A program made the position numbers and the translations under genes. Below are positions 17,655 to 60,852 of a stretch of 64,000 bases of DNA, piece after piece. The stretch's first letter is position 1. Each line of letters opens with the position of its first letter. The DNA comes from Laspinema olomoucense D3d (lineage in GTDB: Bacteria > Cyanobacteriota > Cyanobacteriia > Cyanobacteriales > Laspinemataceae): NCBI RefSeq assembly GCF_025370715.1, contig NZ_JAMXEY010000002.1. One strand, given 5' to 3'. The notes below the pieces were generated by a model, which made no database searches, was not told the origin of the DNA, and worked only from the letters and a program-made list of their open reading frames with translations.

Positions 17655-17783
17655 TCCGATACTGCATCCGGTTGTGACAGCCCTAACAATACTCTTGAGC
17701 CCGCGCAGGCGGGCTTTGTCTGTGTAGACCCACCCTTGAGGGTGCGGGTTTTTATAGACTTTGAGAACCGAATTCCGTATTAT
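17655..17783 (+). repeat. MITE-like small repeat element, copy A, with imperfect 15-bp terminal inverted repeats and two internal hairpins
   Basis: ATACTGCATCCGGTT...AGCCCGCGCAGGCGGGCT...GACCCACCCTTGAGGGTGCGGGTTTTTATAGAC...AACCGAATTCCGTAT. The core is shared with copies at 19.1, 54.6, 58.0 and 60.8 kb. Confidence 0.7.
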
Positions 17784-17862
17784 CCTCCATCCTCCCTGGG
17801 TTCGGGAAAGTCGCCTCTAGGCGATCGCCACCCCCAGATCTCCTCTTTTTGGTAAAAAATAC

Positions 17863-17868
17863 TATAAT
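17863..17868 (+). promoter_or_regulatory. Candidate -10 hexamer (TATAAT) for nadA
   Basis: Perfect TATAAT lies 45 nt upstream of the nadA ATG. No convincing -35 is present. Confidence 0.3.
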
Positions 17869-17913
17869 TAGGAATAACACCCTAAAGAACTGCAAGTTCA
17901 CCCCCTGAAAATT

Positions 17914-18888
17914 GTGTTTACTGCGACTTTATCACCGCGCAATTCTGCCCAAACCTCCGCGATTCCAGACGATTTATTTGCAGCCATTGAATCCTTGAAA
18001 CAGGAACTCAATGCAGTGATCCTCGCCCACTACTATCAAGAACCCGACATTCAGGATATTGCTGACTATATCGGTGACTCTCTCGAACTGGCCCGAAAAG
18101 CTGCCAATACCAACGCCGATGTCATCGTCTTTGCCGGAGTTCACTTCATGGCAGAAACGGCTAAAATCCTGAATCCGAATAAACTGGTTTTGCTTCCCGA
18201 CTTGGATGCCGGTTGTTCCCTGGCCGATAGTTGTCCTCCCGATGCCTTTGGGGAATTTAAAGCCGCTCATCCGAATCATATTGTCATCTCTTACATTAAC
18301 TGCTCGGCGGCCATTAAAGCCATGAGCGACATTATCTGCACCAGTTCTAATGCAGTCAAACTGGTGCGGCAAATCCCCGAAAATCAGCCGATTATTTTTG
18401 CCCCCGATCGCAATTTAGGTCGGTATGTGATGGAGCAAACGGGCCGGGATATGGTGTTGTGGCAAGGCAGTTGCATGGTGCATGAAACTTTTTCAGAAAA
18501 GAAAATTGTTCAGCTCAAAATTCAACATCCTGAAGCTGAAATCATTGCTCATCCCGAATGTGAACCGACGGTGTTGCGCCATGCTAATTATATTGGGTCA
18601 ACCAGTGCGCTGTTAAACTATGCTCAAAATAGTGCCAGCCAGGTGTTTATCGTGGCTACGGAACCGGGAATCATTCATCAAATGCAAAAACAGGCGGGAG
18701 ATAAACAGTTTATTCCCGCGCCACCGCTGAATAGTTGTGCTTGTAATGAATGCCCTCACATGAGGCTGAATACCTTAGAAAAATTATATTTGGCTATGAA
18801 AAATCGCGCCCCGGAGATTACCTTACCGGAGGAAACGCGCAAGGCAGCATTGCGCCCGATGCAACGAATGCTAGAAATGAGCGCATAA
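17914..18888 (+). CDS. nadA: Quinolinate synthase A
   Basis: Motifs [55 protein letters not shown] and WQGSCMVHE, plus the conserved Cys that ligate the 4Fe-4S cluster. Confidence 0.9.
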
Positions 18889-18979
18889 TCATAGTAAATC
18901 CCGCTGTTTCAAGCTCAGGTAGGCGGCGATTGTTTAGATGAACACCTAACGACAGCAAGTCGTTAGGTCATCCGTATAG

Positions 18980-19006
18980 CCCTCTTTGGAGGGTGTTGGT
19001 TTTTGC
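18980..19006 (+). terminator. Second small hairpin plus T-rich tract downstream of nadA
   Basis: CCCTCTTTGGAGGG followed by TGTTGGTTTTTGC. Confidence 0.35.
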
Positions 19007-19017
19007 TAGTTTCAATC

Positions 19018-19051
19018 GAAAAGGGTAGGGCAATGCCGTACCCTTTTTTTA
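19018..19051. terminator. Bidirectional rho-independent terminator between convergent nadA and the TerB-like gene
   Basis: AAAAGGGTAGGGCAATGCCGTACCCTTTTTTT: a 9-bp stem (one mismatch) with a 3-nt loop, flanked by an A-run on one side and a T-run on the other. Confidence 0.6.
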
Positions 19052-19089
19052 TTTTGGGAATCAGGCAATGAATGATTGCCTAACCGAAT

Positions 19090-19214
19090 ATTATACGGAA
19101 TCCGGTTGTAATAGATCCATAAAAACCCGCACCCATGCATGGTGGGTCTACACAGACGAAGCCCGCCTGCGCGGGCTGAAGAGAAAATCGACTTTTAACA
19201 ACCGGATTTGGTAT
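19090..19214 (-). repeat. MITE-like element, copy B (reverse orientation)
   Basis: The reverse complement reads ATACCAAATCCGGTTGTTAAAAGTC...AGCCCGCGCAGGCGGGCT...GACCCACCATGCATGGGTGCGGGTTTTTATGGAT...AACCGGATTCCGTAT. Confidence 0.7.
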
Positions 19215-19744
19215 TATTGATTTAAAAAGGCGTGAAGGTGGGATGCAAGTTTCTCGATGATTCCTTCCTCATTTTGTAAACTTTTTTCAGCTTCGGCTTC
19301 GATGCGCGGGACTACATCCTCGGGCAAATTCAGGAGGGAAACGAGTTTTTTGTAGGCTTGAGCTTCTTCGGCATTAATATTAGGCTCATCGGGGGTTCGG
19401 GAACTGGAGGCGATGACTTCATAGCCGATTTGCAGAACCAGTTCCCGTTCGGGTTGGGTGGCGAGTTTAGGGATTAATTCTTCCAGCGGGATGTTTTGCA
19501 TCATATAGTCCCGCAGTTCTTCTTTGAGTTTGTCTTGTTGTTGGGGACTGACGGAAAATAAGCGACTAAAGCGATCGAGCATGATCTCGACTTCTTCGGC
19601 CCCGAGTTCACCATCCGCCCATGCCATTGCTGTTACAACTCGTAACAGGTTCATCTGACGCGGGGTGATGGAGGGTGGGGGTGGGGGTTGGATTGCCATT
19701 GTTTTTTCCTCAAAATATGGGAAGTTGTGGCCAAACCTTATCAT
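19214..19744 (-). CDS. TerB-like (tellurite-resistance TerB family) domain protein. The true start may be the internal Met (MAIQPPPP)
   Basis: LLRVVTAMAWADGELGAEEVEIMLDRF matches the TerB-type helical ADG...E motif. The C-terminus is acidic. Confidence 0.45.
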   Translation of the reverse strand: MIRFGHNFPYFEEKTMAIQPPPPPSITPRQMNLLRVVTAMAWADGELGAEEVEIMLDRFSRLFSVSPQQQDKLKEELRDYMMQNIPLEELIPKLATQPERELVLQIGYEVIASSSRTPDEPNINAEEAQAYKKLVSLLNLPEDVVPRIEAEAEKSLQNEEGIIEKLASHLHAFLNQ

Positions 19745-19843
19745 GCGATCGCCGGGTTGGGCTTCTATCGTAAGGTTATCTTAGGGAATGGGTTGCCAGA
19801 AGAGGAAGAGACGCCTGAAGGCGTCTCTTCCTCTTCCGCCTAT

Positions 19844-21637
19844 TTACCCTTTAAGTTGACTCACCGAACTCCCTAACCAGCCTTTGAGATTATTCTGTTG
19901 AGTCGCGGTAGGATTCTGAATGGGGACGATATTGTAAGTGGTGGGACGGGGTTGGGCGAGAACCGTCTCAACGGTTCGTAATTGTTCTTGATGGAAAACC
20001 GTAATTTGGATTTTGGACCCGGTTTGATAGTCTTTCAGGCGATCGCCCAAATCTTCGGCAGTAACGCGCATTCCATCGATCGCCAGTAACTCATCATCGG
20101 CATCGATTCCCGCCCGTTGCGCGGGTGAACCCATTTCTACAAATTTAATCGCCGCTTTACCATTTTCTGTCTTAACTGTCAAGCCCAAAAACGGTGCTGC
20201 ATCATTATTTTCCACGGGTTGCACTTTTAACCCAAAGGGTTGCAGATACTCATCCAGAGGTAATTCGGCAGTCCCGTGGATGTAGTCGTTAAAGAAGTCC
20301 GTTAAATCTTCTTCGGCAACGGATTCAATAATCTCTTTGAGTTCCTCATCGGTAAAGCCAATTTCTTGGGGTCCAAACCGCTGCCACATTTGCTGCATCA
20401 CCTGATCCAGCGATCGCGCGTTGCCGGAGTTTGCCCGAATTCGCAAATCTAACAACAGGGAGACTAATTCTCCTTTCAAATAATAGGAAATTTGGGAATT
20501 ATCGCTATTGGCATCTCGGCGATACAGTTTAATCCAAGCATCCCAACTCGATTCACTCAGGGGTTGATAACGACGTCCCGGAAGGGTTTGTAAGCGGGTA
20601 ATATCTTTACTCAACCCTTGTAAGGCAATTTTTGCATCATAAATGCCCGCCCACAGAGGCAGCACGATATCATAATAACTGGTGGTTCCTTCACAAAACC
20701 ATAGAGAATTCGTGTAGGTTTCCCCTTCATAGTTAAACACTTCTAGGGGTTTGGGACGAATGCGCTTGACATTCCACAAGTGGAAGAACTCGTGGGCGAC
20801 TAATTGAATGAAGCGGTTGTATTTTTCGGGATTTCTAAATCCAAAGCGGGGATAGTTCAAAGAACAGCTATTTTTATGTTCCAATCCGCCATAGCCTTGG
20901 GAGGAGAGATGGAGAATAAATAAGTAGCGATCGTAAGGTAACCCTCCGAATAGCCGACTTTCAGTTTCAATGATTTTTTCAATATCAGAAATCAGCCGTT
21001 CAGCTTGGATATTTCCTTGGCCCCAAATAGCTAATTCATGGGGTTTATGTTCCACTTCAAAATAATAGGATTGGTGCGTACCAATTTCAAAGGGGCTATC
21101 CACCAACGTATCGAAATCCGGGGCGGTAAAAGTGTGGGGACGTCCCGATTTGGAAGGTAGTGAAGTGGTAACCCGCCATTCCGGTTTTGGGGGGATAATT
21201 TGAAGGGAAATCGGGCTTTTTTCAAAGCCGGGGATATAGAAGAAGAGGGCGGCCCCGTTAAAATAGCCATGAGTGCTATCTAAGTGATTAGTTCGGACCG
21301 AGAGTTCGTTGGCATAGATGCGATAGCGAACGATAATTTCAGAGAGTCCTGGGGTTTCGATTTGCCAGTGATTTTTGCTCACTTTACGCCAAGGTAGGGC
21401 GATTTCGTTGGCGTCTTCAGCAGAGAATTCCTGGAGATGTTTGGCATACTCCCGGACTAAATAGGAACCAGGAGTCCAAACGGGCATTTTCAAATCCAGG
21501 ACCGATGCTCGCCATCCCCGCACTTTTAACATCACGTCAAATAGATGAGATTCTGGCTCATACATCGCCACCTGATAGTAAACATCGGGAGCGATTCGAG
21601 GCAGAGTATTCGGTGGAATTTTTGTTGCTTCAGTCAT
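19844..21637 (-). CDS. M61-family glycyl aminopeptidase with a C-terminal PDZ domain
   Basis: Zinc motif HEFFHLWNVKR (HExxH). Length and order match M61. PDZ-like GLTVKTENGKAAIKFVEMGSPAQRAGIDADDELLAIDGMRV. Confidence 0.85.
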   Translation of the reverse strand: MTEATKIPPNTLPRIAPDVYYQVAMYEPESHLFDVMLKVRGWRASVLDLKMPVWTPGSYLVREYAKHLQEFSAEDANEIALPWRKVSKNHWQIETPGLSEIIVRYRIYANELSVRTNHLDSTHGYFNGAALFFYIPGFEKSPISLQIIPPKPEWRVTTSLPSKSGRPHTFTAPDFDTLVDSPFEIGTHQSYYFEVEHKPHELAIWGQGNIQAERLISDIEKIIETESRLFGGLPYDRYLFILHLSSQGYGGLEHKNSCSLNYPRFGFRNPEKYNRFIQLVAHEFFHLWNVKRIRPKPLEVFNYEGETYTNSLWFCEGTTSYYDIVLPLWAGIYDAKIALQGLSKDITRLQTLPGRRYQPLSESSWDAWIKLYRRDANSDNSQISYYLKGELVSLLLDLRIRANSGNARSLDQVMQQMWQRFGPQEIGFTDEELKEIIESVAEEDLTDFFNDYIHGTAELPLDEYLQPFGLKVQPVENNDAAPFLGLTVKTENGKAAIKFVEMGSPAQRAGIDADDELLAIDGMRVTAEDLGDRLKDYQTGSKIQITVFHQEQLRTVETVLAQPRPTTYNIVPIQNPTATQQNNLKGWLGSSVSQLKG

Positions 21638-21811
21638 GGGTATTTTTTGTTAGGTTATCGGCTAATCTAGACTCGGTTAGGGGCAGTATTTTAGACTGTC
21701 GATTCACCATGTTTGACTGTATGGTGGTGAGTGCTTCAGGCGCGATCGCCTTAATCCCCTTCCCTGCGGTTTAGAATGCCCCTAACCTTGGATATTGTCG
21801 CTGAAGATGGC

Positions 21812-22495
21812 TCAAACGTGGCCCGCTAAGTGAGTCAACTGTTTGAGATTGACCAAATAAAGAGATTCAGCAGCTTCATCAATTTTAATCCAGCCTTTGG
21901 CGTTCAATTTTTCCATGATTTTGCTGGCTTCTTCGACGCCAATATCGGTGACATCTGCTAAGTCTTTATAGGGAATATTGTAGATTTCTGTCCCTTTTTC
22001 GGTAGATTGTCCATAGTTTTCCGCCAGAGAAACTAAGGTATTGGCAAGTTTGACCGCTGGGGGACGGTTCCGCAGTTGAAAGCGTAGATTTGTTTGTCGG
22101 AGTCGTCGCACCATGAGTTGGAGCATCCGATGATGGAGTTGAGCGTCTTTAAACAGGGTTTGGATAAACCGCTGGGCAGAAACGCTCAGGAGTTGTACGG
22201 TTGAGAGGGCGATCACATCAGTGGAACGGGGTGATTCATCAAGAATTGCCATTTCCCCAAAGAAGTCACCTCGCCCGAGAATCGCCAGAGTTACTACATT
22301 GTCTCCATATAGGCGTCGGACTTTGACCCAACCCGTGACGATAAAGTAAACGGCATTGCCCCAGGCATCTTCCATTAAGACTGCTCTGCCTGAGGGATAT
22401 TCGTGCTCAACCGCAACGGACAAAAGCCATTCCAGGGTTTCTGGATTGGCGGCACTAAATAGCGGGAAAAGCTCACTAAAGGCTTCGGTCTGCAT
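21812..22495 (-). CDS. Crp/Fnr-family transcriptional regulator
   Basis: cNMP-binding fold GDFFGEMAIL...RSTDVIAL. C-terminal HTH IPYKDLADVTDIGVEEASKIMEKL. It is not NtcA: the recognition helix differs from what I recall for NtcA. Confidence 0.85.
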   Translation of the reverse strand: MQTEAFSELFPLFSAANPETLEWLLSVAVEHEYPSGRAVLMEDAWGNAVYFIVTGWVKVRRLYGDNVVTLAILGRGDFFGEMAILDESPRSTDVIALSTVQLLSVSAQRFIQTLFKDAQLHHRMLQLMVRRLRQTNLRFQLRNRPPAVKLANTLVSLAENYGQSTEKGTEIYNIPYKDLADVTDIGVEEASKIMEKLNAKGWIKIDEAAESLYLVNLKQLTHLAGHV

Positions 22496-23784
22496 GAAAG
22501 ATATTTAAGATAGGGAATGAGGATAAGTAATAGCGCAGAGTCGGGAATTTGAGATTGTTAAAACCGGCAACAGGAGACCTATTTTCCAGGGCTGACCCTT
22601 GAGGGCAAATCCTTTGAGGAATGCTGATTTGGGGTCGGCTTCTGAATTAAACACGCTTCTTTGTTGCTCCGGATTAACAATGACTACAAAAAAGACTCTC
22701 CGATGGGAGTGTCTGGCTCCTGGGAATGGATACTGTACCGATTGTACCTGCCATCAGACGATTTGGCAGCAATCCTGGGAAAGCCGGAAGGGCGATCGCC
22801 TCCGGTGTTTTCAAAAGGACTGAATCCTGTTGTTGCCCTATTTGTCCGGTTTATTTGGACTCGGGATTAGAACCCCTAGAGAACTCAGGGACAGGCCAAC
22901 TCAAGCGGGTTGTGGTTATTCTATAGACCTAGGATTATATTTTCTCATGTTTGGGGTGGCTTTGCCGGATTGAAACAGATTTGCGATCGCCCGGAAAGCC
23001 AGAGTCTAGGATCCACTGCTGACTAGGCTCGGGGCCGGAGTCATTTGGCTTAGAGGGCCCAAGAGTAGCCGCCTCCCCAGGAATTTTCCACCCCTTCAGG
23101 CCCCTCTCGCGGTGCGGGTTCCCTTTTATCCTCCCTGAGTTTTCCTAAAACCCATCCCCCTCAAAGGTGGAGCTTTTGCGGATGAACCCCCGGACCCAGG
23201 CAAAAGAGAAACCAGGCTTTATTTTGGTTTAAAGAGCCATTACACCGAAATCATTCACCCTGCTGTTTACTCTGAGTTGACCCCTTCCAACAATCTCTCA
23301 GACAGGTTAATTCAAAGGTTATCTACACCTTAATCTCAATTAAGATTCTGTAACCTTTTCATCAGGCTTAGGATACTCTAATTTTCAATTAATCTCCTCC
23401 CTCTGTAGATGTAATTCTGTTGCGCAATTCCTCTTTTTTAGAGCATCAAACCGAAAGAGAAGGGGAATTCCCTTCCTCGCCCGTATCTGGGGATACCGAT
23501 GGGATGCCTAAGCCTTGAGTCGAAACTAACTTCATGGGCTTAATTAGATAATGGTGAGTTAACGGCAAAAGATTTGGATTGGAGTAGAGCAAGTAGACAA
23601 TTTATGAATCAGGTTCATCCCTGGGGTAGAAACTGAAGGATAGCTCAGTCGCTAACCTGGTTATTTAGGTGAGGAGGATTGACCTAAAAACTTAACCTGC
23701 GGGTTATTTTTTCATTGAATCATAAGGTCCAATCAAAAATTGCCCTCCTCCTAAAGAAGTAGAATTTTATCCCAAGGAAATCAA

Positions 23785-24765
23785 ATGTTTTATCACGTCA
23801 AAGAATTACAATTTAATGCCCGTGTGTCCAAGCCCGATCCCCGCTTTGCAACCTTACTGCTAGAACAGTTTGGCGGTCCTAACGGAGAACTGAAGGCAGC
23901 CATGCAGTATTTTGTCCAGGCGTTTGGAGCGCGGCAAGCCTACCCGGAAAAATACGACCTGTTGATGGATGTGGCCACGGAAGAATTTAGCCATTTGGAA
24001 ATCGTTGGTGCATTGATTACCATGTTGTTAGATGGCATCAATGGGGATCTCAAGAACGCCGCAGAAAACAGCGAGATTATGCAGTTTCTGAGTGGAAAAA
24101 AAGCGGGCCAGGAAGAACTCATCCATCAAATTGCTATGACGGGACCGCAACTATTAGCAGTATCTGGGGGTGGTCCAACGGTCACGAATAGCCAAGGTGT
24201 GCCTTGGTCAGGGACTTATGTGAATGCGAATGGAGATTTGACCGTTGATTTGCGATCGGATCTGGCTGCCGAGTCTCGGGCGAAAATTGTCTATGAATAT
24301 TTGCTGCAATTTACCGATGATCCGGATGTAAAAGACACTCTGCGCTTCTTAATGACGCGGGAAGTTTCTCACTACAAAATGTTTGCCGCTGCCCTGGAAA
24401 CTATCGAACCGAATTTCCCCCCGGGAGTGCTACAAGCTGACCCGCGCTACAGTCATTTGTACTTTAATATGTCCAATGGCACCAGCGCTCGCGGACCTTG
24501 GAATGAAGGTCAAGGGACTTGGCCTGCGGGAGAAAATTGGGTGTATGTAGAGGATCCTCTCGATTATGTCATCAAGACGGAAGGGATGACCCGCAATCAG
24601 ACGAGTGAAGGGACGAAGCTGACGGAAGAACAGGTCTTCAAAAAGGAACAAGAGCTGAGCATGAAGCGTTCTGCGGAGGTGAAATCGGCTACTCCTCCAG
24701 GGCCGAATCAGTGGTCTTCCTACCCGCAAACTGAGCTGAGTAGTCCGAAATCGCCGATGAAATAA
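23785..24765 (+). CDS. Manganese-containing (non-heme) catalase
   Basis: N-terminal MFYHVKELQF...ELKAAMQYFVQAF...EEFSHLEIVGALI matches the di-Mn ferritin-like catalase family. Second ligand block TREVSHYKMF. Confidence 0.85.
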   Translation: MFYHVKELQFNARVSKPDPRFATLLLEQFGGPNGELKAAMQYFVQAFGARQAYPEKYDLLMDVATEEFSHLEIVGALITMLLDGINGDLKNAAENSEIMQFLSGKKAGQEELIHQIAMTGPQLLAVSGGGPTVTNSQGVPWSGTYVNANGDLTVDLRSDLAAESRAKIVYEYLLQFTDDPDVKDTLRFLMTREVSHYKMFAAALETIEPNFPPGVLQADPRYSHLYFNMSNGTSARGPWNEGQGTWPAGENWVYVEDPLDYVIKTEGMTRNQTSEGTKLTEEQVFKKEQELSMKRSAEVKSATPPGPNQWSSYPQTELSSPKSPMK

Positions 24766-25156
24766 GAAAATCCCAACCCTCAAGGACTCTGTTGGCGAAT
24801 CAAGTAAAGAGACCTCTCCCCAAACCCCTCCCCTCTTAGGGAAGGGGTTGGGGGGGTTAGGTCTCCCTTTAGCCAACAGAATCCTCAAGGGTCGGGTTCT
24901 ACAGACGAAGCCAGAAAAGCGCGGGTTTATTCACAGGGGGGAGTGGGGATTTAAGGCGATCGCAGCCATCGCCGTTGAATCTGATCCCACCCTGAAGGCT
25001 TAACCCCAAGCGAGATGAAATTCCCCTTTCCCCTGAAGAAAGGGGAATTGTCATGGTGTCAGGTTCAAGACAATCTGGGCTAACCTGGCGATCGCCTGTT
25101 TCAGAAATGATTAAAATCCCGATCGCCACCCCTATTTATAATAAAGGTCATTAATC

Positions 25157-26065
25157 ATGCAAACTTATCCCCCGATCGCCTCCTTGGAGAAATCACCGGA
25201 CCCCCAAACCCTGGGCCAAAACTCGCCTCCTGGGGCACCTCTTGAAATCATCTACTATACCGACCCCCTCTGTTCCTGGAGTTGGGCGGTAGAACCCCAG
25301 TGGCGACGCTTGCGCTACGAGTTTGGCGATCGCCTGGTCTATCGCTATTCAATGGGGGGACTCCTTCGGGATTGGGAGCAGTTTAGCGACCCTCTCAACG
25401 ATATTTCCCGACCCGTGCAGATGGGTCCAGTTTGGATTCAGGTGCGACATCTCACGGGAATGCCCATTAACGAAGGAATCTGGGTGAAAAACCCTCCTAC
25501 CTCTTCTTATCCCGCCTGTATTGCCGTGAAAGCTGCCTCACAACAAGGCCCCGATATTGGAGAGTCCTATTTGCGGCGACTGCGCGAGGCGGTGATGTTG
25601 GAGGGCCGCAATATTGCCCAAAGGGAGGTTCTGCTGGAACTGGGGGCGGAATTGAACCCGGAACTCGGCTTTGATGGCGATCGCTTTGAGAGGGATTTGG
25701 ACCATCCCGATTCTATGGAGGCATTCCGCCAGGATCTCAAAGAAATGCGCTATTGCGGGATCGCGCGGTTTCCCAGCATCATGCTGCGCCCGAACTCGGG
25801 GCGATCGCTGCTGATGATGGGATATCGGCCCTATTCGGTTCTAAGAGAGGCCATCACCCACATTGCGCCGGATCTCGAACCTCAGCGCTCAATCACCGAT
25901 GCGATCGCATATCTCACCCACTGGGAAACCATCACAGTGCCCGAGGTTGCCGTTGCTCTGAATCTCAATATAGAAGCAACAACCATCCTGCTGGATGAAG
26001 CAGTCAACCGGGGACACGTGGAAAAAGCCGGGTTCCTGTATCGCAAAACCGGGGGAGGGACTTAA
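25157..26065 (+). CDS. DsbA-like thioredoxin-fold protein with a CxxS active-site variant and a ~65-aa winged-helix-like C-terminal extension
   Basis: IIYYTDPLCSWSWAVEP at the DsbA-like N-terminus has CSWS instead of CxxC. Tail ITDAIAYLTHWETITVPEVAVALNLNIEATTILLDEAVNRGHVEK resembles a wHTH. Confidence 0.65.
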   Translation: MQTYPPIASLEKSPDPQTLGQNSPPGAPLEIIYYTDPLCSWSWAVEPQWRRLRYEFGDRLVYRYSMGGLLRDWEQFSDPLNDISRPVQMGPVWIQVRHLTGMPINEGIWVKNPPTSSYPACIAVKAASQQGPDIGESYLRRLREAVMLEGRNIAQREVLLELGAELNPELGFDGDRFERDLDHPDSMEAFRQDLKEMRYCGIARFPSIMLRPNSGRSLLMMGYRPYSVLREAITHIAPDLEPQRSITDAIAYLTHWETITVPEVAVALNLNIEATTILLDEAVNRGHVEKAGFLYRKTGGGT

Positions 26066-29751: not shown

Positions 29752-29757
29752 AGGAGG
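29752..29757 (+). promoter_or_regulatory. Shine-Dalgarno AGGAGG for the first glycosyltransferase of the polysaccharide island
   Basis: AGGAGG sits 16 nt upstream of ATG 29774. Confidence 0.5.
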
Positions 29758-29773
29758 GAGTTTCGACTAAGGC

Positions 29774-31000: not shown

Positions 31001-31147
31001 TATCAAAACCAACTCCCAAACGGCAATTGTCAGCGTAATTCTAAGGGATTAGCACTGCATTTTATTTCAGTGCTAAAGCTCGGTGCAATTTACGCAAAAT
31101 TTTTCAGCCTCCAACTCACTTCATTTACTCCTCAACGATTGAAACCC

Positions 31148-46514: not shown

Positions 46515-46554
46515 TTTTTATATAGTCTCCCACCTGCTGAACTCTCATCCCGGG

Positions 46555-48777: not shown

Positions 48778-49013
48778 TATCCCGATTAAAACTAATAAAA
48801 CCTAAATTTCAGTCTTTTCTTAAGTCGGTAGTAACGATTTCAGTCGTTTTCTTAAGTTCACCATCCCGACTTGCTGTCGTTCTCTTGCAAAATACCAGTT
48901 TGGTCACTCCAACCCCCTTAAGTCAGGTTGTAGAAACCGATCGCCCTCCCCAAGACATAGAGGAGGGAACCGGATGTGCTCAGACGGAGATTTTCAACTC
49001 AAACCCTGATGCT

Positions 49014-49472: not shown

Positions 49473-49560
49473 AATAGTTCAGGGGTGGATTTCATCTTAT
49501 CCCTGTACTTATTTTAGCATAAAAATCTGGTAAATCCCCAATCCTCACCCCTAAACCGCC

Positions 49561-50493: not shown

Positions 50494-50866
50494 CGATAGT
50501 ATCTCCCGTGACGGGTGGTTAAGATGAAGGCGATCGCCGATTGCACCCGAGGAAAATCCCAGAGTTGGAGCTCTCCCGGGTGGGATGAACGACCCGGGAT
50601 AGTGGTATCCGGCGGGAAATTTACCGCATCAAGGGCTTGAGCTTTCAGGGACTAGACTCTATAAACAGACCTAGAGTTCGGATTATTCAACCAACAACAT
50701 GACAGCCCTAGGGCAGAAAGGTACCTCTGGAGTAATACAATATCACTAGAGAATTAAGAGATTAGACCTCAATTTTCGTAAGCCTTCCCAAACAACCAAG
50801 GATAAATCAAGATAAACCCTGCAATTGAGGAAGACACTGCGCCGAATTATTAAATGCCTTTAATTT

Positions 50867-53329: not shown

Positions 53330-53716
53330 TCAGGGATGTTCTTGCTCAAATCGCACCCCCCACTCGTGCATCGTATCTAAAATCGGTTTGAGAGTCATCC
53401 CAAATTCTGTTAAAGAATACTCCACTTTCGGCGGAACCTGAGCATAAACCATCCGGTTAATCATCCCATCCCGTTCTAGTTCCCGCAATTGCTGAGTCAG
53501 CATTTTTTGAGTAATTCCATCTAACGCCCGATGCAGTTCTCCAAATCGTTTTACCCCCGAAAATAGCTCTTGCAAAATCAAGACTTTCCATCGTCCCCCA
53601 ATAATCGCTAAAGTGGTTTCCACCGGACATCCCACTTGTTTTTTGCCTTCCGCTTTTGCTTCCATTGTTACTTTTTGGGTACTAACCCACTTAAAAGTGC
53701 ATACTTTACAAATCAA
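53330..53716 (-). CDS. HxlR-family winged-helix transcriptional regulator. The likely true start is the internal Met (MEAKAEG)
   Basis: CPVETTLAIIGGRWKVLILQELFSG...RFGEL...GITQKMLTQQLRELERDGMI matches the HxlR signature. Confidence 0.85.
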   Translation of the reverse strand: MICKVCTFKWVSTQKVTMEAKAEGKKQVGCPVETTLAIIGGRWKVLILQELFSGVKRFGELHRALDGITQKMLTQQLRELERDGMINRMVYAQVPPKVEYSLTEFGMTLKPILDTMHEWGVRFEQEHP

Positions 53717-53782
53717 CTTTACCCATTCTAAAGTAAGTAATAACTAAAGCATCTAAATTCCATAAAACCTGTCGCGATCGCA

Positions 53783-54493
53783 TTGGAGGAACCCATGTTA
53801 ACCCTACGCAAAGCAGAAGAACGGGGACAAGGCAATTATGGCTGGCTCAAAACCAACTATAGCTTTTCCTTTGCCAACTATTACGACCCTCAGTACATGG
53901 GATTTCGTGCGCTGCGGGTGATTAACCAGGACTGGGTGAGTGGCGGAGGTGGCTTTCCCACCCATTCTCACCGGGATATGGAAATCGTCACCTATATACT
54001 AGAAGGGGCGTTAGAACATAAAGATAGCATGGGAAACACTTCCGTTATTCTTCCCGGGGAAGTTCAACGGATGAGTGCGGGAACCGGAGTCGCACATAGT
54101 GAGTTCAATCATTCCCGAACCGAATCCGTGCATCTGCTGCAAATTTGGATGTTACCGGGCCAACAAGGACGAGTCCCCTCCTATGAACAAAAACACTATT
54201 CCGAGGCAGAAAAACGCGGCCAATTGCGGTTAATCGGGTCCTCAGATGGTCGGGAGGGTTCCGTCACCATTCATCAGGATTTGAACCTGTATGCCACCAT
54301 CCTGCACAAAGGCGATCGCGTGGTGTATGACATTCCCCCCAACCGTCATGCTTGGGTACAAGTCGCCCGGGGTACGCTGACCCTCAATGACCTCCCCTTG
54401 AAAACTGGGGATGGAGTCGCCTGTTCCGCGCCAGAAACCCTTACCCTAGTAGGGTCTGAAGAAGCAGAAGTGCTATTGTTTGACTTGGCTTAA
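53783..54493 (+). CDS. Pirin-family cupin protein
   Basis: RKAEERGQGNYGWLKTNYSFSFANYY, GFPTHSHRDMEIVTYILEG and two cupin halves. Confidence 0.9.
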   Translation: MEEPMLTLRKAEERGQGNYGWLKTNYSFSFANYYDPQYMGFRALRVINQDWVSGGGGFPTHSHRDMEIVTYILEGALEHKDSMGNTSVILPGEVQRMSAGTGVAHSEFNHSRTESVHLLQIWMLPGQQGRVPSYEQKHYSEAEKRGQLRLIGSSDGREGSVTIHQDLNLYATILHKGDRVVYDIPPNRHAWVQVARGTLTLNDLPLKTGDGVACSAPETLTLVGSEEAEVLLFDLA

Positions 54494-54574
54494 GCGCCTC
54501 TGTGAGAGACTGGAGGCAGAGCCTCATGGAGAGCGTGACTGGGTAGAACCCAGTCACGAGGAAAGGGGGTTTTA

Positions 54575-54655
54575 GCCTGCGTAGGCAGGCTTTGTCCGTA
54601 TAGCCCCAGGCTTGAGCCTGGGGGTTTTTACTATCAGTACCGGATTTGGTATTAA
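54575..54655 (+). repeat. MITE-like element, copy C (5'-truncated; core plus right TIR)
   Basis: TAGCCTGCGTAGGCAGGCTTTGTCCGTATAGCCCCAGGCTTGAGCCTGGGGGTTTTTAC...ACCGGATTTGGTAT. Confidence 0.6.
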
Positions 54656-57600
54656 ACCCCCGGTTCAGGACCGCGCCAGTCCACCCCAGAAGGAGATGGC
54701 ACATTGTCCAAATCGGGAGACTCCTGGAACACCGTTTCCAGTTGATCCGGACTTAAAGGCGGACGTCGGCCCCCGAAGATGTCATGAAGCAAGGTATAAA
54801 AACAGGGAATAATAAACAACGTTAGAACCGTCGCTAAGGATAACCCAGAGAACACCACCACCCCCAAGGGTTGTAAAAATTCCCCCCCTTCCCCCATGCC
54901 TAACGCCAGAGGCAACATTCCCAACACCGTGGTGATGGTTGTCATCAAAATCGGTCGCAAGCGTTGGGGGGCTGCTTTCAAGATAGCTTGCCGTCGGTTA
55001 ATTCCTTCTTCTTTATATATTTGGTTTGCAAACTCTACCATAAGAATGGCATTATTTACCACAATCCCCACTAACAGAATCGCCCCGACTAATACCGTTG
55101 CCCCCACCGGAGTTTCGGTGACATAAAGTCCGACAATTCCCCCCGCTAATGCTAAAGGAACCGTTAGCATAATAACTAATGGATCAATGAGGGAATTGTA
55201 CTGGACCGCCATCACCACAAAGACTAGAAAGGAGGCTAATCCTCCTAACAGCTTGAGAGAGTCTTGTAACTCTTGATTGGTTTGCGCCGAAGAAGAAGGA
55301 ACCACACTCACCCCTGGAGGAAAATCGATGCCTGCTAGGACTTCAGCAATCTCGGCATTTGCCTCTCCCAGGGTTGCACCTTCGGTCAAAGAACCGCCAA
55401 TAATAAACACCTGACGCTGATTAATCCGTTGAATTTCTCCCGGTGCCTGTCCGCGTTCTACCGTGGCGATATCCTGCAAGCGAATTGACCGATTATTGCC
55501 CACTAACAGGGGTAATTGTTCTAACTGAGAGACCCGTTGGACCATATTATCGGGTAAGGTAACGCGAATATCAACCAGGCGATCGCCCCGTTGGAGTTGA
55601 GTGGGAACTGCCCCTTGAATTGCCGTTTGAATCGCTGCCCCAATGTCATTTACCGACAACCCATATTCGGAGGCCCGCACCCAATCTGGACGAATTTGTA
55701 ATTCAGTTTGTTGAGAGTCCGCATCGGGACGAAAACTTGCTAAAGTAGCTTGTTCATCTAATGCCGCTAAAACTTCTTTCCCCGCTTGTTCCAAAGCCTG
55801 AACATCCGTACCTTGTAACGTAACATCCAACTCAGCACGAACTGGGGAATTTGTCAGAATAATCCCCCGGACACTTTCGGGACTCATTCGCAGGCGAGCA
55901 TCCACCAGATTCAGCTTTTCAAATTCCGCACTGGCGCGGGTAATAAAAGCGTCAATATCTGTACCCGGTTTCAAGGTAACGGTACTGGAACCCCGCAGAG
56001 GATTCGGGGAGACACTGGTACCAAAAAGAAAGCCCCCAGCGGTGGTAAAGGCATTTAGAGTTTCCGGTTGAGCCAGTAAAATCTCATCAACCTTTGCCAT
56101 AATTTTCAGGTTTTGAGCCAATGTCGTATTCGGAGGGAACTGGGCAAATAAGCGAGCTTGGCCCGTATTAATCTCCGGTAAAATTTCCTGGGGAAGTCCT
56201 CCAGCTAACCAAAAACTCCCGCTTCCTAAAACGATGATAGCCAGGGCAATCACTATCACTCGCAGCCGTAAAACCCATTTTAAAATCCATTGATAAAGGC
56301 GAGTAAATCCATTAAATCCGGCATTAAATGCCCGGAGTAGAAAAAATTGACTTAATCCGCTGGTATAGGGAATGGCTAATAAGCGCGAGGTCAACATCGG
56401 AACCACGGTTAAGGCAACCAGTAAGGAGGAGGCAACAGCAAAACTAATGGTTAAAATGAGTTCGCTAAATAAGAGCGAAAATAGGCCACCAATGAGTAAG
56501 AAGGGTAAGACGGAGACGAGGTTAGTGGTGGTTGAGGCGAGTAAGGCAGACTCGATAGACCGACTGCTGGCTTCCGCTTGGGCGATCGCCTTGGAGGAGG
56601 TCAGCCGTTGATTTTGCTGAGTTTTCCCCGGTGTCATCCCCACCCCTTCGGCGATGGTTTCCAACATGACGATCGCATTGTCTACCACAATCCCCACCCC
56701 CAGGGCCAATCCCCCTAAACTAAACACGTTCAGGGAGAGACCAAACATTTGCATTAAGGCAATGGAACTCAGGGTCGCCAAGGGAATGGATAAGACAATA
56801 ATCACCGTTTGGCGAATCGAACCTAAAAACAGTAACACCGCCAGGGCCGCGAGTCCCGCGCCGGTCAACCCGGAAACCACCACATTAGAAATGGAATTTC
56901 TAATAAAAACCGACTCATCTAAAGTGGGATAAATATCCATATCGGGGGGAATTACCCCGGACTGCCGCAACTGTTCTAGTCGCTGTTTGACCCCCTCTAC
57001 TGCCGTAATCGTATTGGCATCCGGTTGTTTTTGAATGCTCACTTTGATGGCGGGTTCGCCATTCAAGGTGACCCGCACCAGCCGTTCGGCAGTACCATCG
57101 ATGATATCCGCAAAGTCCCGGAGATAGACGCGGCCTTGATTGGGAATTTCAAACGAAAGATTAGCAATTTCCTCAACGGATTCAAATCGGCCCCGGGCGC
57201 GAGTCAGGGGTTCTTCACTCCCGCCGGATAACCGACCCCCAGCCACATCAATATTGCGATCGCGCAACTCATTTAAAACCTGCGTTAACCCCAGTCCATA
57301 CGATTGCAATCGCACTGGGTCAATGCGAACCTGAATCTCTTCGGTGATTCCCCCAGAAACATCCACCGCTGCCACACCGGGCACCACCCCTAATTCTCGG
57401 GCTAACTCCTCATCGGCAAAGACCCGCAAATCCACATCTTGTAGGGACGCCGACTGTAACGCAAACTCATAAACCGGAGACTGAGAGGGGTCTACCTTAA
57501 ATAATCGGGGGGAGTCCACCACCTCCGGGAGACGTCCTTGGGCGCGGTTAAAGGCAGCAGTGGCCTCATTCAAGGCGAGATCCACATTTCCTCCGGGTTC

Positions 57601-57894
57601 AAAGAATAAATCGACACTGACTCGACCTTCCCGGGTTTGGGAATAAACCTGCACCACCCCTTCGGTGGTACTCAGGGCCTCTTCTAAGGGTTTAGTAATT
57701 TCTTCGATCGCCACTTCAGGGGAGATTCCCGGCGCATCCAGGCGCAGTCCAATCCGAGGATAGGTAATGGCGGGAAGCAGATCCACTTGAATCGAAGTGA
57801 GAAAGAATACCCCCAGGACGATCGCCGTGGTGGTAAGGGCTAAGGTGCCAATATGCTGGCGAATTGCGGTTGCACTGATGCTGAATCCATTCAT
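54652..57894 (-). CDS. RND-superfamily efflux transporter (AcrB/HAE1-like, 12 TM)
   Basis: 1080 aa with two large periplasmic loops. Conserved RND blocks: GLALGVGIVVDNAIVMLE and GAILLVGIVVNNAILMVEF. Confidence 0.9.
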   Translation of the reverse strand: MNGFSISATAIRQHIGTLALTTTAIVLGVFFLTSIQVDLLPAITYPRIGLRLDAPGISPEVAIEEITKPLEEALSTTEGVVQVYSQTREGRVSVDLFFEPGGNVDLALNEATAAFNRAQGRLPEVVDSPRLFKVDPSQSPVYEFALQSASLQDVDLRVFADEELARELGVVPGVAAVDVSGGITEEIQVRIDPVRLQSYGLGLTQVLNELRDRNIDVAGGRLSGGSEEPLTRARGRFESVEEIANLSFEIPNQGRVYLRDFADIIDGTAERLVRVTLNGEPAIKVSIQKQPDANTITAVEGVKQRLEQLRQSGVIPPDMDIYPTLDESVFIRNSISNVVVSGLTGAGLAALAVLLFLGSIRQTVIIVLSIPLATLSSIALMQMFGLSLNVFSLGGLALGVGIVVDNAIVMLETIAEGVGMTPGKTQQNQRLTSSKAIAQAEASSRSIESALLASTTTNLVSVLPFLLIGGLFSLLFSELILTISFAVASSLLVALTVVPMLTSRLLAIPYTSGLSQFFLLRAFNAGFNGFTRLYQWILKWVLRLRVIVIALAIIVLGSGSFWLAGGLPQEILPEINTGQARLFAQFPPNTTLAQNLKIMAKVDEILLAQPETLNAFTTAGGFLFGTSVSPNPLRGSSTVTLKPGTDIDAFITRASAEFEKLNLVDARLRMSPESVRGIILTNSPVRAELDVTLQGTDVQALEQAGKEVLAALDEQATLASFRPDADSQQTELQIRPDWVRASEYGLSVNDIGAAIQTAIQGAVPTQLQRGDRLVDIRVTLPDNMVQRVSQLEQLPLLVGNNRSIRLQDIATVERGQAPGEIQRINQRQVFIIGGSLTEGATLGEANAEIAEVLAGIDFPPGVSVVPSSSAQTNQELQDSLKLLGGLASFLVFVVMAVQYNSLIDPLVIMLTVPLALAGGIVGLYVTETPVGATVLVGAILLVGIVVNNAILMVEFANQIYKEEGINRRQAILKAAPQRLRPILMTTITTVLGMLPLALGMGEGGEFLQPLGVVVFSGLSLATVLTLFIIPCFYTLLHDIFGGRRPPLSPDQLETVFQESPDLDNVPSPSGVDWRGPEPGV

Positions 57895-58007
57895 ATATTG
57901 CGGGTTCTAACGGTGGACATTTAGCCCCTGGGGGAGGGATTCACGGACAATTGATGATTTAAAAGTAGGATGAATCCTGATGGCAGCAAATTCCAGGCGA
58001 TCGCCTC

Positions 58008-58107
58008 ATACCAAATCCGGCTGGTAAAAGTCTATATTTCTAGGTGAGCCTGCGTAGGCAGGCTTTGTTCGTATAGACCCACCCTTGAGGGTGTGGATTT
58101 TTATAGA
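58008..58107 (+). repeat. MITE-like element, copy D (left TIR plus core; right end degenerate)
   Basis: ATACCAAATCCGGCTGGTAAAAGTC...GAGCCTGCGTAGGCAGGCTTTGTTCGTATAGACCCACCCTTGAGGGTGTGGATTTTTATAGAC. Confidence 0.65.
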
Positions 58108-58166
58108 CCAGGAGCAACCAAATTCCGCCTCAATTCCCCAGCATTATGAGGAAACCAAAGCCCCAA

Positions 58167-59423
58167 TTATGATTCTGACAAGGCACTCAAGCGCACCTCA
58201 TCCCCGCTGGACAGGGGCCGACTGCTGCGGGTCACATAACGTTCGCCCGGTCCAAGTCCCGAGAGAATTTCCACTTGATTATTCAGGCGTTCCCCAATTT
58301 GGACCGTTCGTGCTTCCACTGTGGGGGTCCCCTCTCCCTCCTGAAGCACAAACACGGTGTTTTTATCTTCCCCTTGTAAAGCGTTTTCTGGGATAACAAC
58401 TCGTTCCGTAGTTTGGGTGTCAAAGGTCACCCTGGCAAGCAACCCACTCCCAATCCGACCATCGGGGTTAGGAATCGTTACCTCTACCGGAATTTGGCGC
58501 GTTTCCACATTCGAGACAGGAGAAATGCGGCTAACTCGACCTTCAAGCACTTCCCCGCCCAAGGCATCTAAACTAACGGTAACGGCTTGTCCTACGCGAA
58601 TCTCAGCTAAGGCCAGTTCCGCCACGGGAACGATCGCCTTAACCTGACTAAAATCGCCAAGTTTTAAAACATCCCCCCCCGGTTGCACTAGATTTCCCGG
58701 TTCCGTCAGGCGATCGAGCACAACGCCGGTAATCGGGGACCGGATAAAGGCATAAGACCGACGTTCCCGGGCTTGGGCCACTACCGACCGTTGGGCCTTC
58801 ACCAGTTGTTCAGCGCTACGCACCGATTCTTGTTCAATCAGAATCTGTTCTCGGGCCGATCGCACGGTTTGCGCTGCCACTTCGGCTGCGGTTTGGGCGA
58901 GTTCTCCCTGTTGACGAGAAACGGCCCCTTCAGCGGCTAAATTGAGGAACCGTTCTGCATCTTTTTGAGCTTGTTGGAGTTCCACCAGGGCTTGATCTAC
59001 CTGAATTTGGGCATTTCTGACCTCATTGCGGGCGCGGACCACATCGGATTCCCGGGCGGCTAATTCGGCTTCGGCTTCTCCAAGGGAGATTTCTAGGAGA
59101 GTGCCATCGAGTTGGGCGAGGATTTCTCCTTCCTCAACGCGATCGCCTAGGTCTACGGTCATATCCAGTAAGCGTCCTTCGGTTTGGGCGCGCACAGAAA
59201 CCTCTCGAAAGGGTTCTGTATTGCCGCTATAAACTAGAGGTTCGCCTAAGGTCTCTGTGCGGGCGACTGCCACCTCGACGCTGGGGGTACTGGGTCCCCG
59301 TTGTCGTTCTCTGGACCCACCCGGGGTGGCGGGTTGACCTTCCGCCTCTCGGTTAAAAATACTGGGACACCCGAATAATCCCACCGCGATCGCCATGCAG
59401 AAGAACAACCGCCCGGTTTTCAT
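58167..59423 (-). CDS. RND efflux periplasmic adaptor (membrane fusion protein, HlyD family). Likely start ATG at 59423 (lipoprotein-like MKTGRLFFCMAIAVGLFGC); the ORF track extends to 59522
   Basis: Lipobox LFGC, coiled-coil hairpin (ARESDVVRARNEVRNAQIQVDQALVELQQAQKDAER), beta-barrel and MP domains. Immediately upstream of the RND pump on the same strand. Confidence 0.85.
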   Translation of the reverse strand: MKTGRLFFCMAIAVGLFGCPSIFNREAEGQPATPGGSRERQRGPSTPSVEVAVARTETLGEPLVYSGNTEPFREVSVRAQTEGRLLDMTVDLGDRVEEGEILAQLDGTLLEISLGEAEAELAARESDVVRARNEVRNAQIQVDQALVELQQAQKDAERFLNLAAEGAVSRQQGELAQTAAEVAAQTVRSAREQILIEQESVRSAEQLVKAQRSVVAQARERRSYAFIRSPITGVVLDRLTEPGNLVQPGGDVLKLGDFSQVKAIVPVAELALAEIRVGQAVTVSLDALGGEVLEGRVSRISPVSNVETRQIPVEVTIPNPDGRIGSGLLARVTFDTQTTERVVIPENALQGEDKNTVFVLQEGEGTPTVEARTVQIGERLNNQVEILSGLGPGERYVTRSSRPLSSGDEVRLSALSES

Positions 59424-59825
59424 GGAGTTCCCCAGCGATCGGCATCGGGGGTCATGGGGAATTGGACTATCCCGCTGCTGCTGGGACCCTTGACGAATGG
59501 AGGGGGGAGATTGAGACAGCATAATGAGCGCTTAGCAGACCGTAATTGTTTAAGCAGAAGTTAATTCCACTATTTTAAGGATTAAGGAGATGGATAAAAA
59601 TCTACTCTTTCGACAAGGATGACGGACTCCTTATAGTTTTGACAAGGTTCAGCGAAAAACGGTTCAATCTCCCCACCTTATATGTTGCTACACTATAGAG
59701 GAGGACTCCCAATTTAACGAGAATCCGTTATAGTCTGAGCCGGGGGGCAGCTCCATGTCATCCGACTGAAGGCTTAAAATAAATCAATTTACCGTTGTAG
59801 TACCGCTTTATCTTACATAACCACT

Positions 59826-60641
59826 ATGTTGCAGACACCGCTTTGCAGAATGATCGGGGTGACTTATCTGGTGTCGTTTTTAATCTTAGGGGCTTCTCAA
59901 TTGGCCACCCCAGCGATCGCCACCGAATCGCGTGGATGGATTTTCCCCCAAAGGGTTACTCAAAGTCCCCCAGAGGCAGAAATGAATAGCTGTAACCCCG
60001 AGGCGATCGCAACGGATACCTCATTCAGGGCATTACTACCCCCCAATCAGAATCAGATTTCAACCCTAAAAGGACTTCCCTCTTTCTTCTTTTACCTCCC
60101 CGAAACTTCGGCTCAAAATGCTGAATTTATCTTATCAAATGAGAGTGATCTCGTCCTTTATAAGCTGCGATTTGCCCTAAGCGGAAATCCCGGGATAATT
60201 CGCCTACAACTCCCCCTTTTTATCAACCTAGAACCCCTGGAAATTCAAAAAATCTATAGCTGGTCATTTTCAATTATTTGTAATCCGGCCTTTGTGTCCC
60301 AGAATTTAACCCTGAGTGGAACAGTTCAGCGCCTCCCCCTCTCCGGTAATCTGGCAACTCAGTTACAAACTGCCTTCCCCAGCAGTCATCCTCAAATTTA
60401 TGCGGAAGCGGGACTATGGATGGATGCCTTCAGCAGCTTAGCCGACCTGAGTCAACTCCCTCTTGATGATCCATCTAATCAAGAAGAATGGGAAACCCTA
60501 TTGCAATTGATGGGATTAGAAGCCTTGGACGCCTTGGAATCGGGGGGGAGACCGCCAATCGAGATAGGGGAGACCGCCAATCGAGACCGCCAATCGAGAC
60601 CGCCAATCGAGACCGCCAATCGAGACCGCCAAGCGAGATAG
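59826..60641 (+). CDS. Secreted hypothetical protein (possibly DUF928-like) whose 3' end is built from a 13-bp tandem DNA repeat
   Basis: Signal peptide MIGVTYLVSFLILGASQLATPAIA. C-terminus reads RPPIEIGETANRDRQSRPPIETANRDRQAR, encoded by a GACCGCCAATCGA array. Confidence 0.55.
   Translation: MLQTPLCRMIGVTYLVSFLILGASQLATPAIATESRGWIFPQRVTQSPPEAEMNSCNPEAIATDTSFRALLPPNQNQISTLKGLPSFFFYLPETSAQNAEFILSNESDLVLYKLRFALSGNPGIIRLQLPLFINLEPLEIQKIYSWSFSIICNPAFVSQNLTLSGTVQRLPLSGNLATQLQTAFPSSHPQIYAEAGLWMDAFSSLADLSQLPLDDPSNQEEWETLLQLMGLEALDALESGGRPPIEIGETANRDRQSRPPIETANRDRQAR
60572..60636 (+). repeat. 13-bp tandem repeat (GACCGCCAATCGA, about 5 units) inside the 3' end of the CDS
   Basis: Direct reading: gaccgccaatcga repeated five times, the last with a G substitution. 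The unit length is not a multiple of 3, so three units encode one 13-aa peptide repeat. Confidence 0.8.
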
Positions 60642-60749
60642 GGGAGATAGATAGCAATCCTAAATGATTTGTACCTCATCCCAGTCCCCTCTCCCCTTCT
60701 GGGCCGCCAACGAGAAAGGGGCCGCCGACGTCTTCCACAACGGCACGTC

Positions 60750-60852
60750 ATACCAAATCCGGTTGGTAAAAGTCGGTTTTCGCTTTTAGCCCGCGCAGGA
60801 GAGGCTCGGTCCTGTGAGGCTCCACCCTTGAGGGTATGGGTTTTTATAGACC
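60750..60852 (+). repeat. MITE-like element, copy E (left TIR plus core)
   Basis: ATACCAAATCCGGTTGGTAAAAGTCGG...AGCCCGCGCAGGAGAGGCTCGGTCCTGTGAGGCTCCACCCTTGAGGGTATGGGTTTTTATAGAC. Confidence 0.65.

Follow-up and report, generated by a model that had tools for sequence, protein, structure and literature searches.

Between the genes of a 64,000-nucleotide stretch of the genome of the cyanobacterium Laspinema olomoucense D3d (contig NZ_JAMXEY010000002.1, assembly GCF_025370715.1; the whole stretch is referred to here as the window) lie several copies of a short, hairpin-rich repeat. What kind of element is this, what moves it, and does its GC-rich interior serve the host? The first-pass annotation of the window had taken the repeat for a MITE family (miniature inverted-repeat transposable elements) with 15-bp inverted ends, possibly domesticated as a transcription terminator or small-RNA scaffold. 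We predict that each copy is a non-autonomous composite, a DDE-type MITE shell that is moved in trans and carries one unit resembling repetitive extragenic palindromic (REP) sequences, and we give this reading a probability of about two in three. The shell, recognizable by imperfect inverted ends of 24 bp, would insert at TNA and duplicate 3 bp, and would be moved in trans by a putative DDE transposase, belonging either to the IS5 family (IS1031 group) or to the PIF/Harbinger type. Its cargo would be one 51-nt core placed mid-shell (hairpin 1, a linker ending in RTAG, and hairpin 2). This core would be a REP-like unit in its own right, found in inverted clusters on either side of a gene for an IS200-type Y1 (HuH) protein, as in REP/REPIN-RAYT systems.

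Ends, target duplications and mobility of the element

The family-wide analysis is based mainly on 33 full copies, taken from the window and from loci of related genomes (L-numbers denote genome loci examined outside the window). Full copies have a modal length of 120 bp, from TAC to GTA (120-122 bp in the window), and no open reading frame (ORF) lies inside. The parts follow one another as left end, spacer of ~13 nt, hairpin 1 (consensus AGCCYGC-GYAG-GCRGGCT), linker (TTYGTYYGTRTAG), hairpin 2 (8-bp stem, one base bulged out of the 3' arm, TTNA loop), T5 and right end. The hairpins and the linker, which is single-stranded and conserved, make up the core. In the consensus, the left end is TACCAAATCCGGTTGTTAAAAGTC and the right end is the inverted complement of TACGGAATCCGGTTGTCAAAGGTC; these inverted repeats match at 20 of 24 positions. 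The MITE-like character of the family was recognized correctly, and the window holds four full copies and one chimeric copy, but the inverted ends extend over about 24 bp rather than 15. Variants of the left and right ends always keep the same orientation relative to the core.

The copies in the window (c17, c19, c54, c58 and c60; Table 1) were identified by string and profile searches. Hairpin 1 (AGCCCGCGCAGGCGGGCT, at most 3 mismatches) occurs at 17698, 19160 (minus strand), 54574 and 58047, 4 matches against 0.03 expected, and the string of hairpin 2 plus T-run occurs at 17727 and 58076 (2 against 0 expected). The 15-nt end has 12 matches against 2.2 expected, among them both ends of copies and a solo end. 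An nhmmer profile made from the five window copies and run against the window returned four full-length matches, one partial match and two weak ones. The inverted repeat of the element is also found in the repeat listing of the window (as I6), in which the palindrome GCGATCGC is abundant; this palindrome and a glutamine riboswitch (below) mark the window as cyanobacterial.

Target-site duplications are present. Identical 3-bp flanks were identified in 23 of the 29 scorable full copies (window and related genomes), and all 23 are TNA (TTA 10, TGA 7, TAA 3, TCA 3); the middle base of the flank is equal in 25 of the 29. Two window copies with degenerate right ends, c58 and c60, fell outside the automatic scoring and have TCA on both sides by eye. 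For c19 the empty site can be seen. Locus L090, from a cyanobacterial metagenome-assembled genome (MAG), is ~90 % identical to window positions 17396-25641 and reads ATATTAT^TGATT where c19 would be; to this precisely empty site the window adds the 120-bp element and one extra TAA. The further copies anticipated beyond the window were found in number: copies with window-type ends are numerous in related genomes, and more than 30 full copies lie at unrelated loci elsewhere. The same ends also enclose other, unrelated interiors (L085 and L026). A mobile MITE family with conserved ends is supported by these observations. Short inverted ends and a 3-bp TNA or TWA duplication are typical of IS5-family (IS1031 group) and PIF/Harbinger transposases; because the element has inverted ends and duplicates TNA, we infer a DDE transposase of one of these types.

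We considered stop codons as a preferred target and rejected them, as no more than 3 among 30 full copies coincide with one. At L043 2985-3232, two full copies stand head to tail with one TTA common to both, the second copy apparently having inserted into the target duplication of the first.

The two-hairpin core and an IS200-type Y1 gene

The core is not a product of this MITE but an independent REP-like module that occurs across cyanobacteria, a point that the first-pass annotation missed. A scan of one genome per species, using a pattern of hairpin 1 plus linker, identified the core in at least 120 loci in the Oscillatoriales, Nostocales and Chroococcales. Genera include Oscillatoria, Laspinema, Hormoscilla, Microseira, Potamolinea, Calothrix, Scytonema, Tolypothrix, Chlorogloeopsis and Aphanothece. 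Nearly all loci are from cyanobacteria or cyanobacterial MAGs; there are also a few 'uncultured bacterium' records and one sequence binned as Anaerolineae. The core is found within window-type ends, within quite different 28-bp ends (GGGAACTCCAAAAAATAAAAT..., with TWA flanks), alone, and in tandem arrays with periods of 54-181 bp.

Hairpin 2 was absent from the search pattern, so that its structure can be tested without bias. Of 143 distinct cores, 115 retain at least 7 of the 8 pairs; swapping 3' halves between sequences lowers this number to 48 on average (maximum 61). Covariation was evaluated in a gap-free alignment of 42 distinct cores against 500 shuffles. None of the three observed values (93.7 % of cells paired, 56 double-change cells and a covariation score of 0.271, versus 83.1 %, 16.3 and 0.092 in the shuffles) was reached in any of the 500, and slid partner columns score at most 0.107. 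Hairpin 2 covaries strongly, a sign of selection on structure. All cores have RTAG directly 5' of hairpin 2; the RTAG was imposed by the search pattern, the hairpin and its bulge were not. Stem variants are lineage-specific: the Laspinema / Oscillatoria HE19RPO clade has CCCCACCC and CCCCAGGC, Hormoscilla has CCGGRCCC and Oscillatoria PCC 10802 has CCGCGATT.

A screen of the loci by regular expression for HuH and catalytic-tyrosine motifs yielded two Y1-like ORFs, both with other palindromes at their flanks. A third Y1 gene, noticed on inspection of short contigs, lies in L055; one core sits immediately against its start codon and two more, as an inverted pair, lie past its stop codon, and the same arrangement is present in the syntenic L074. 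The encoded protein has 135 aa (Pfam Y1_Tnp, E = 4e-23) and 601 homologues at E ≤ 1e-10. Among the best 120 of these 601 (66-90 % identical, 129-164 aa), every organism name given is cyanobacterial, and many entries are metagenome proteins. The homologues often carry the Joint Genome Institute (JGI) label 'REP element-mobilizing transposase RayT'. We examined nine Y1 loci from nine genomes, namely L055, L074 and seven contexts from different genera (Laspinema, Crinalium, a Trichormus-like contig, Oscillatoria PCC 10802, Gloeothece, a Rivularia-like contig and Phormidium). Cores lie on both sides of the Y1 gene in 9 of 9, mostly as inverted pairs in which hairpin 1 points inward and RTAG-hairpin 2 points outward. 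The hairpin 2 variants at the Y1 flanks match those elsewhere in the same genome. Absent beside the Y1 genes are inverted ends of the window type.

In Laspinema and Crinalium the Y1 gene follows the same phosphoketolase (XFP) gene (L121 and L122, both 1-1800), and this shared neighbour in two genera suggests that the Y1 gene is vertically inherited. Clusters of the protein at 90 % identity are mostly found on 1-3 contigs. A Uma2-family gene lies 3' of the Y1 gene in three distant genera (L121 2792-3403, L125 2117-2605, L127 2180-2797).

A low-copy tyrosine-transposase gene within its own GTAG-tagged repeats constitutes the REPtron architecture (Di Nocera 2013, PMC3733652; Bertels 2017, PMC5581495). 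The core-Y1 loci have this architecture, but the protein is not a REPtron member by family. Its motifs DHIH, WQ and YIRNQATHH agree with subclass 1.2 in the survey by Quentin et al. 2018 (PMC6006769). The 'IS200 Group 3' of another survey is unduplicated yet flanked by abundant 16-mers (Bertels et al. 2017, PMC5581495), and may be the same group. By analogy with REP systems, the Y1 protein most likely acts on the core as single-stranded DNA, and the two hairpins would be the structures it recognizes. We further suggest, tentatively and at somewhat less than even odds, that the core is the substrate of a second, independently domesticated Y1 line (IS200-type subclass 1.2) that maintains a REP-like population across cyanobacteria. 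Its units would insert into the hairpin loops or centres of other palindromic mobile DNA and then spread further on DDE-type MITE shells, a nested parasitism in two layers.

Some side observations concern the core. A second MITE family with the same core, in Oscillatoria sp. HE19RPO (L006, L029, L030, L031, L098, L104), has ~28-bp inverted ends (GGGAACTCCAAAAAATAAAATMTCCAAA) and TAA/TTA flanks. An insert of ~23 nt (TCCTTACGGAACGCTACGCGAAC) occupies the hairpin 2 loop of many independent cores, Y1-flanking ones included (L005, minus strand, about 3465-3530; L087; L096; L101; L121 1655-2570), and one of ~21 nt (TTAGCGAAGCGTGCCGAAGGC) occupies the hairpin 1 loop at L074 2470-2660. Hairpin loops seem to be hot spots at which still smaller repeats insert.

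Possible terminator function and other explanations

The proposal that the core has been domesticated, hairpin 2 and the T-run ending upstream transcription or forming a stable small RNA, draws on several features of the window copies. Hairpin 2 plus T5 fits a simple terminator pattern in c17, c19, c54, c58 and a divergent relative of the element (18979-18994), and four window copies and this relative, which begins at 18.89 kb, are sense-downstream of a gene. RNA folding of the units is much stabler than that of shuffled sequences in c17 (-45.5 kcal/mol, z -3.7), c19 (-47.6 kcal/mol, z -5.0) and c54 (z -5.0); z is -1.6 for c58, -0.95 for c60 and -4.0 for the relative. Flanks face gene 3' ends more often than 5' ends (30 vs 17 for full copies, 104 vs 67 for all matches), and 31 of the 33 full copies are intergenic. 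One placement in the first-pass annotation has to be corrected: c58, thought to border the RND efflux operon, in fact lies inside it, between the HlyD and AcrB genes and antisense to the operon.

Orientation does not follow the expectation for terminators. At gene 3' ends, 14 full copies are sense and 16 antisense, and all copies with a T-run divide 31 to 31, in a test with crude gene calls (longest ORF first). The T-run itself is confined to this lineage: of 115 cores overall, 44 have it, as against 0 of 16 in Hormoscilla and 0 of 12 in Oscillatoria PCC 10802, where hairpins and linker are conserved all the same. Nor does the element have any Rfam match in the window at the gathering score. 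Purifying selection against harmful insertions would also place copies at 3' ends; insertion tolerance is enough to explain the preference, which is also reported for REPs generally. Family-wide domestication as a terminator is not supported, and we consider this explanation unlikely. A sense-transcribed copy in this lineage should also act as an intrinsic terminator, via the T-run after hairpin 2; such activity looks like a by-product and not the reason for the existence of the family.

The Rfam search has two further outcomes. The only match in the window at gathering score is a glutamine riboswitch (16391-16483, minus strand; 52.9 bits, E = 9e-9), located 5' of a DUF4278 gene (16028-16351, minus strand). 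Hairpin 1 resembles CRISPR-DR28 below threshold (32.4 bits, gathering 35) at 17697-17720 (minus) and 19155-19178 (plus). We rejected a CRISPR repeat, as the copies are dispersed with nothing regularly spaced; the tandem arrays in other genomes, unlike CRISPR, repeat the whole core unit.

The Y1 (HuH) protein might alternatively move the whole unit, ends included, through single-stranded DNA, as in TIR families tied to tyrosine transposases ('TIRtrons'), with no DDE transposase involved. In favour are the tight linkage of core and Y1 gene and the failure to find a DDE partner. Published precedents are tyrosine-transposase genes within long inverted repeats that form dispersed families, and GTAG repeats inside long palindromes in Anabaena variabilis (both Di Nocera et al. 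2013, PMC3733652). However, the inverted ends are not seen beside Y1 genes, and the same ends carry unrelated cargo. Moreover, IS200/IS605-type Y1 transposition leaves no target duplication, which is difficult to reconcile with the matched TNA of 23 of 29 copies, and we regard this mode of mobilization as quite improbable. The remaining possibility, pieces of a single duplicated region or GC-rich palindromes that arose by chance, has only the closeness of the copies in two clusters (17-19 kb and 54-61 kb) in its favour and is refuted by the empty site of c19 in the ortholog L090 and the TNA duplications at sharp boundaries, to which unrelated flanks, the full copies at unrelated loci in other genomes and ~0 matches in shuffles can be added.

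Besides the crude gene calls mentioned above, several points weigh against the composite reading. Lacking is an autonomous element with these ends, or the cognate transposase that the first-pass annotation proposed to look for: none was identified in 120 genome loci, a plasmid collection and two metagenome scans. Across the 120 genome loci, pairs of inverted ends spaced at 400-4000 bp enclose only host genes bracketed by two MITEs. A repeated-ORF search among the genome loci yielded no insertion sequence (IS), inspection of short contigs no DDE transposase, and BLAST against the plasmids no match. In the metagenome scans the 25-nt end pattern gave 0 matches and the 15-nt pattern 120, nearly all chance and with no long element. 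The core was absent from viral contigs, and the hairpin and end strings were not found in the literature searched. The putative DDE transposase is deduced from the TNA duplication and the inverted ends. The density of cores beside the Y1 gene (34 over 7.2 kb of flanking DNA, counted up to 400 bp from the gene, 4.7 per kb, vs 5 in the 64-kb window, 0.08 per kb) has the window as its comparator, not matched random genes of the same genomes. Two further Y1-like ORFs (in L014 and L110) lie in loci flanked by other palindromes and were for this reason rejected as owners of the core. The core-linked protein is IS200-type by sequence, not RAYT: it scores 73 bits with NCBIfam transpos_IS200 (cut-off 55) and 24.9 bits with REP_Tyr_transpos (cut-off 80), and the nearest solved structures are IS200/IS608-type TnpA (Sulfolobus, IS608, ISDra2). 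In the published survey, subclass 1.2 is low-copy, limited to Cyanobacteria and Bacteroidetes, and without REP (Quentin et al. 2018, PMC6006769).

Copies in the window and comparison with known systems

Table 1. Copies, relatives and fragments of the element in the window, with the nhmmer match and E-value where there is one
Feature	Position	Strand	nhmmer match (E)	Flanks and setting
Solo inverted-repeat end (ATACCAAATCCGGTT)	15840..15854	-		exact; no adjoining core
c17, full copy, 120 bp, TAC...GTA	17660..17779	+	17657-17783 (1e-35 to 1e-37)	between 278-aa ORF and nadA
Divergent relative (repeat family D15)	18892..19005	+		directly after nadA stop codon; no right end
c19, full copy, 120 bp	19094..19213	-	19090-19216 (1e-35 to 1e-37)	TAA duplication 19091-19093 and 19214-19216
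Weak core-like fragment, hairpin 2 type (CTCCACCTTTGAGGGGGATGGGTTTT)	23146..23219	-	23146-23219 (1e-3)	
Decayed core fragment	24879..24914	-	24881-24914 (5e-3)	orthologous intergenic region of L090 has a full copy
Unrelated palindromic doublet (GGAGGCAGAGCCTC ... CGTGACTGGGTAGAACCCAGTCACGAGG)	54512..54560	+		in place of c54 left end
c54, chimeric copy: core, T-run and right end only	54568..54651	+	54568-54656 (9e-23; 3' two-thirds of copy only)	left end replaced
c58, full copy	58009..58129	+	58005-58133 (1e-35 to 1e-37)	TCA 58006-58008 and 58130-58132; right end degenerate
c60, full copy	60751..60872	+	60747-60875 (1e-35 to 1e-37)	TCA 60748-60750 and 60873-60875

The window copies differ in preservation. 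The left end of c17 is degenerate (TACTGCATCCGG) and its flanks are CGA and TTA, so that the target duplication is not intact; c17 is missing from the orthologous L090, where the junction is not clean. In c19, the duplicated TAA at 19214-19216 is the stop codon of a TerB-domain gene. Copies had been noted around the nadA terminator, correctly, but the divergent relative directly after the nadA stop codon was overlooked. The left end of this relative is related in sequence (TAGTAAATCCCGCTG) and its hairpin 1 is a different one (CCTAACGAC/GTCGTTAGG); the linker CATCCGTATAG and hairpin 2 with the T-run follow. The nadA-TerB interval contains this relative, an ordinary bidirectional terminator hairpin and c19, and L090 has another copy, on the minus strand, at the position of the relative; thus, the interval has been hit repeatedly.

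The chimeric c54 is more than a truncated copy: it retains core, T-run and right end, and its left end has been exchanged for an unrelated palindromic repeat. The TTA to its right (54652-54654) forms the minus-strand stop codon of acrB, and its hairpin 2 contains compensatory changes (CCCCAGGC/GCCTGGGG). The junction of doublet and core recurs in L009. In c60 hairpin 1 has decayed. The ORF of a HisKA histidine-kinase remnant starts 11 nt downstream of c60 (60886-61095, FTANAAYELRSPL...), as the first-pass annotation indicated; its phospho-accepting H is changed to Y and it has a premature stop. The coding sequence of the remnant is kept in a Laspinema MAG (L060) from the ATG on. The solo end expected near 15.83 kb and the degenerate core near 24.9 kb were likewise recovered, the latter as a weak profile match. 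Alignment of this fragment with the full copy in L090 gave no clean orthology; the junctions differ.

Other repeats were identified. The doublet beside c54 can also be written GGAGGCAGAGCCTC ... GTGACTGGGTAGAACCCAGTCAC, and related doublets (GAGGCAGAGCCTC plus GTTCCCAGCCTCAGGCTGGGAAC) flank the different Y1-like ORF of Oscillatoria PCC 10802 (L110 3900-5050); the palindromic doublets of c54, L009 and L110 look like a second REP-like family. At L014 4000-5400, a Y1_Tnp ORF (NHYH ... YIHLNP, RAYT-like) lies amid arrays of the palindrome GAAACCCGGTTTC on both sides, another REPtron-like locus with a different repeat. The window also contains a 13-bp tandem repeat (GAGACCGCCAATC, about 7 copies; 60548-60651) at the 3' end of a DUF928 gene and a 9-bp tandem repeat (CTTCCCCAT, about 5-7 copies; 62866-62928) after an NMT1_2 gene. 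An ORF of 2389 aa (1020-8189) is internally repetitive, the period being about 380-390 bp (families D1, D5, D9, D11), and apparently encodes a multi-domain sensor protein.

Local effects on expression may exist for the copies at the TerB stop codon, in the HlyD-AcrB gap and at the acrB stop codon. For annotation, the 120-bp units and cores matter because they are abundant in filamentous cyanobacteria, where they break assemblies and create spurious ORFs; both, tandem arrays included, can be mistaken for CRISPR repeats or terminators.

Like the GTAG-tagged REP families of Anabaena, Nostoc and Cyanothece (Di Nocera et al. 2013, PMC3733652; Bertels and Rainey 2011, PMC3116915), the core is a short GC-rich imperfect hairpin structure with a 5' (G/A)TAG tag, extragenic and present in many copies. 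As in REP/REPIN-RAYT systems, its inverted pairs and arrays border a conserved and apparently low-copy Y1 (HuH) gene on both sides, and its stem variants are lineage-specific. REP dimers inside long palindromes in A. variabilis are a composite of the kind seen here (Di Nocera et al. 2013, PMC3733652). Unlike a REP, the core has two different hairpins and a conserved 12-nt linker instead of one palindrome, and unlike RAYT, the linked protein scores as IS200-type (subclass 1.2, Quentin et al. 2018). The core may coincide with one of the published families GTAG-12, -15 and -16.

The whole element resembles bacterial MITEs such as Correia/NEMIS (Neisseria), ERIC, RUP and the cyanobacterial Nezha and MaeMITE (Delihas 2011, PMC3184786): about 100-170 bp, noncoding, with inverted ends, target duplication, intergenic position, a stable fold, empty/filled polymorphism between relatives and the capacity to affect transcripts. 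Nezha and the other named families were compared through their descriptions. The element differs in that no partner IS was found in the searches above and in that its interior is a separately spreading REP-like unit, not the remnant of a deleted IS.

The 3-bp TNA duplication and short inverted ends are shared with the IS5 family (IS1031 group) and PIF/Harbinger-Tourist elements, from which the element differs in having no linked transposase. IS5-family ends typically start with GA or GG, whereas those of the element begin with TACC. In Nostoc, very short hairpin-forming repeats were reportedly found nested inside larger MITE-like repeats by Elhai and colleagues in 2008; the ~21-23-nt inserts in the loops of hairpins 1 and 2 are reminiscent of these.

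MITEs, REPs and REP dimers within palindromes have already been described in cyanobacteria; the link of the core to this Y1 subclass may be new. The c19 locus, with its empty site and target duplication, is a clean example of a REP-like unit inside a MITE shell, and the core-Y1 loci connect a conserved IS200-type Y1 gene to a two-hairpin repeat in a subclass for which the published survey lists no REP.

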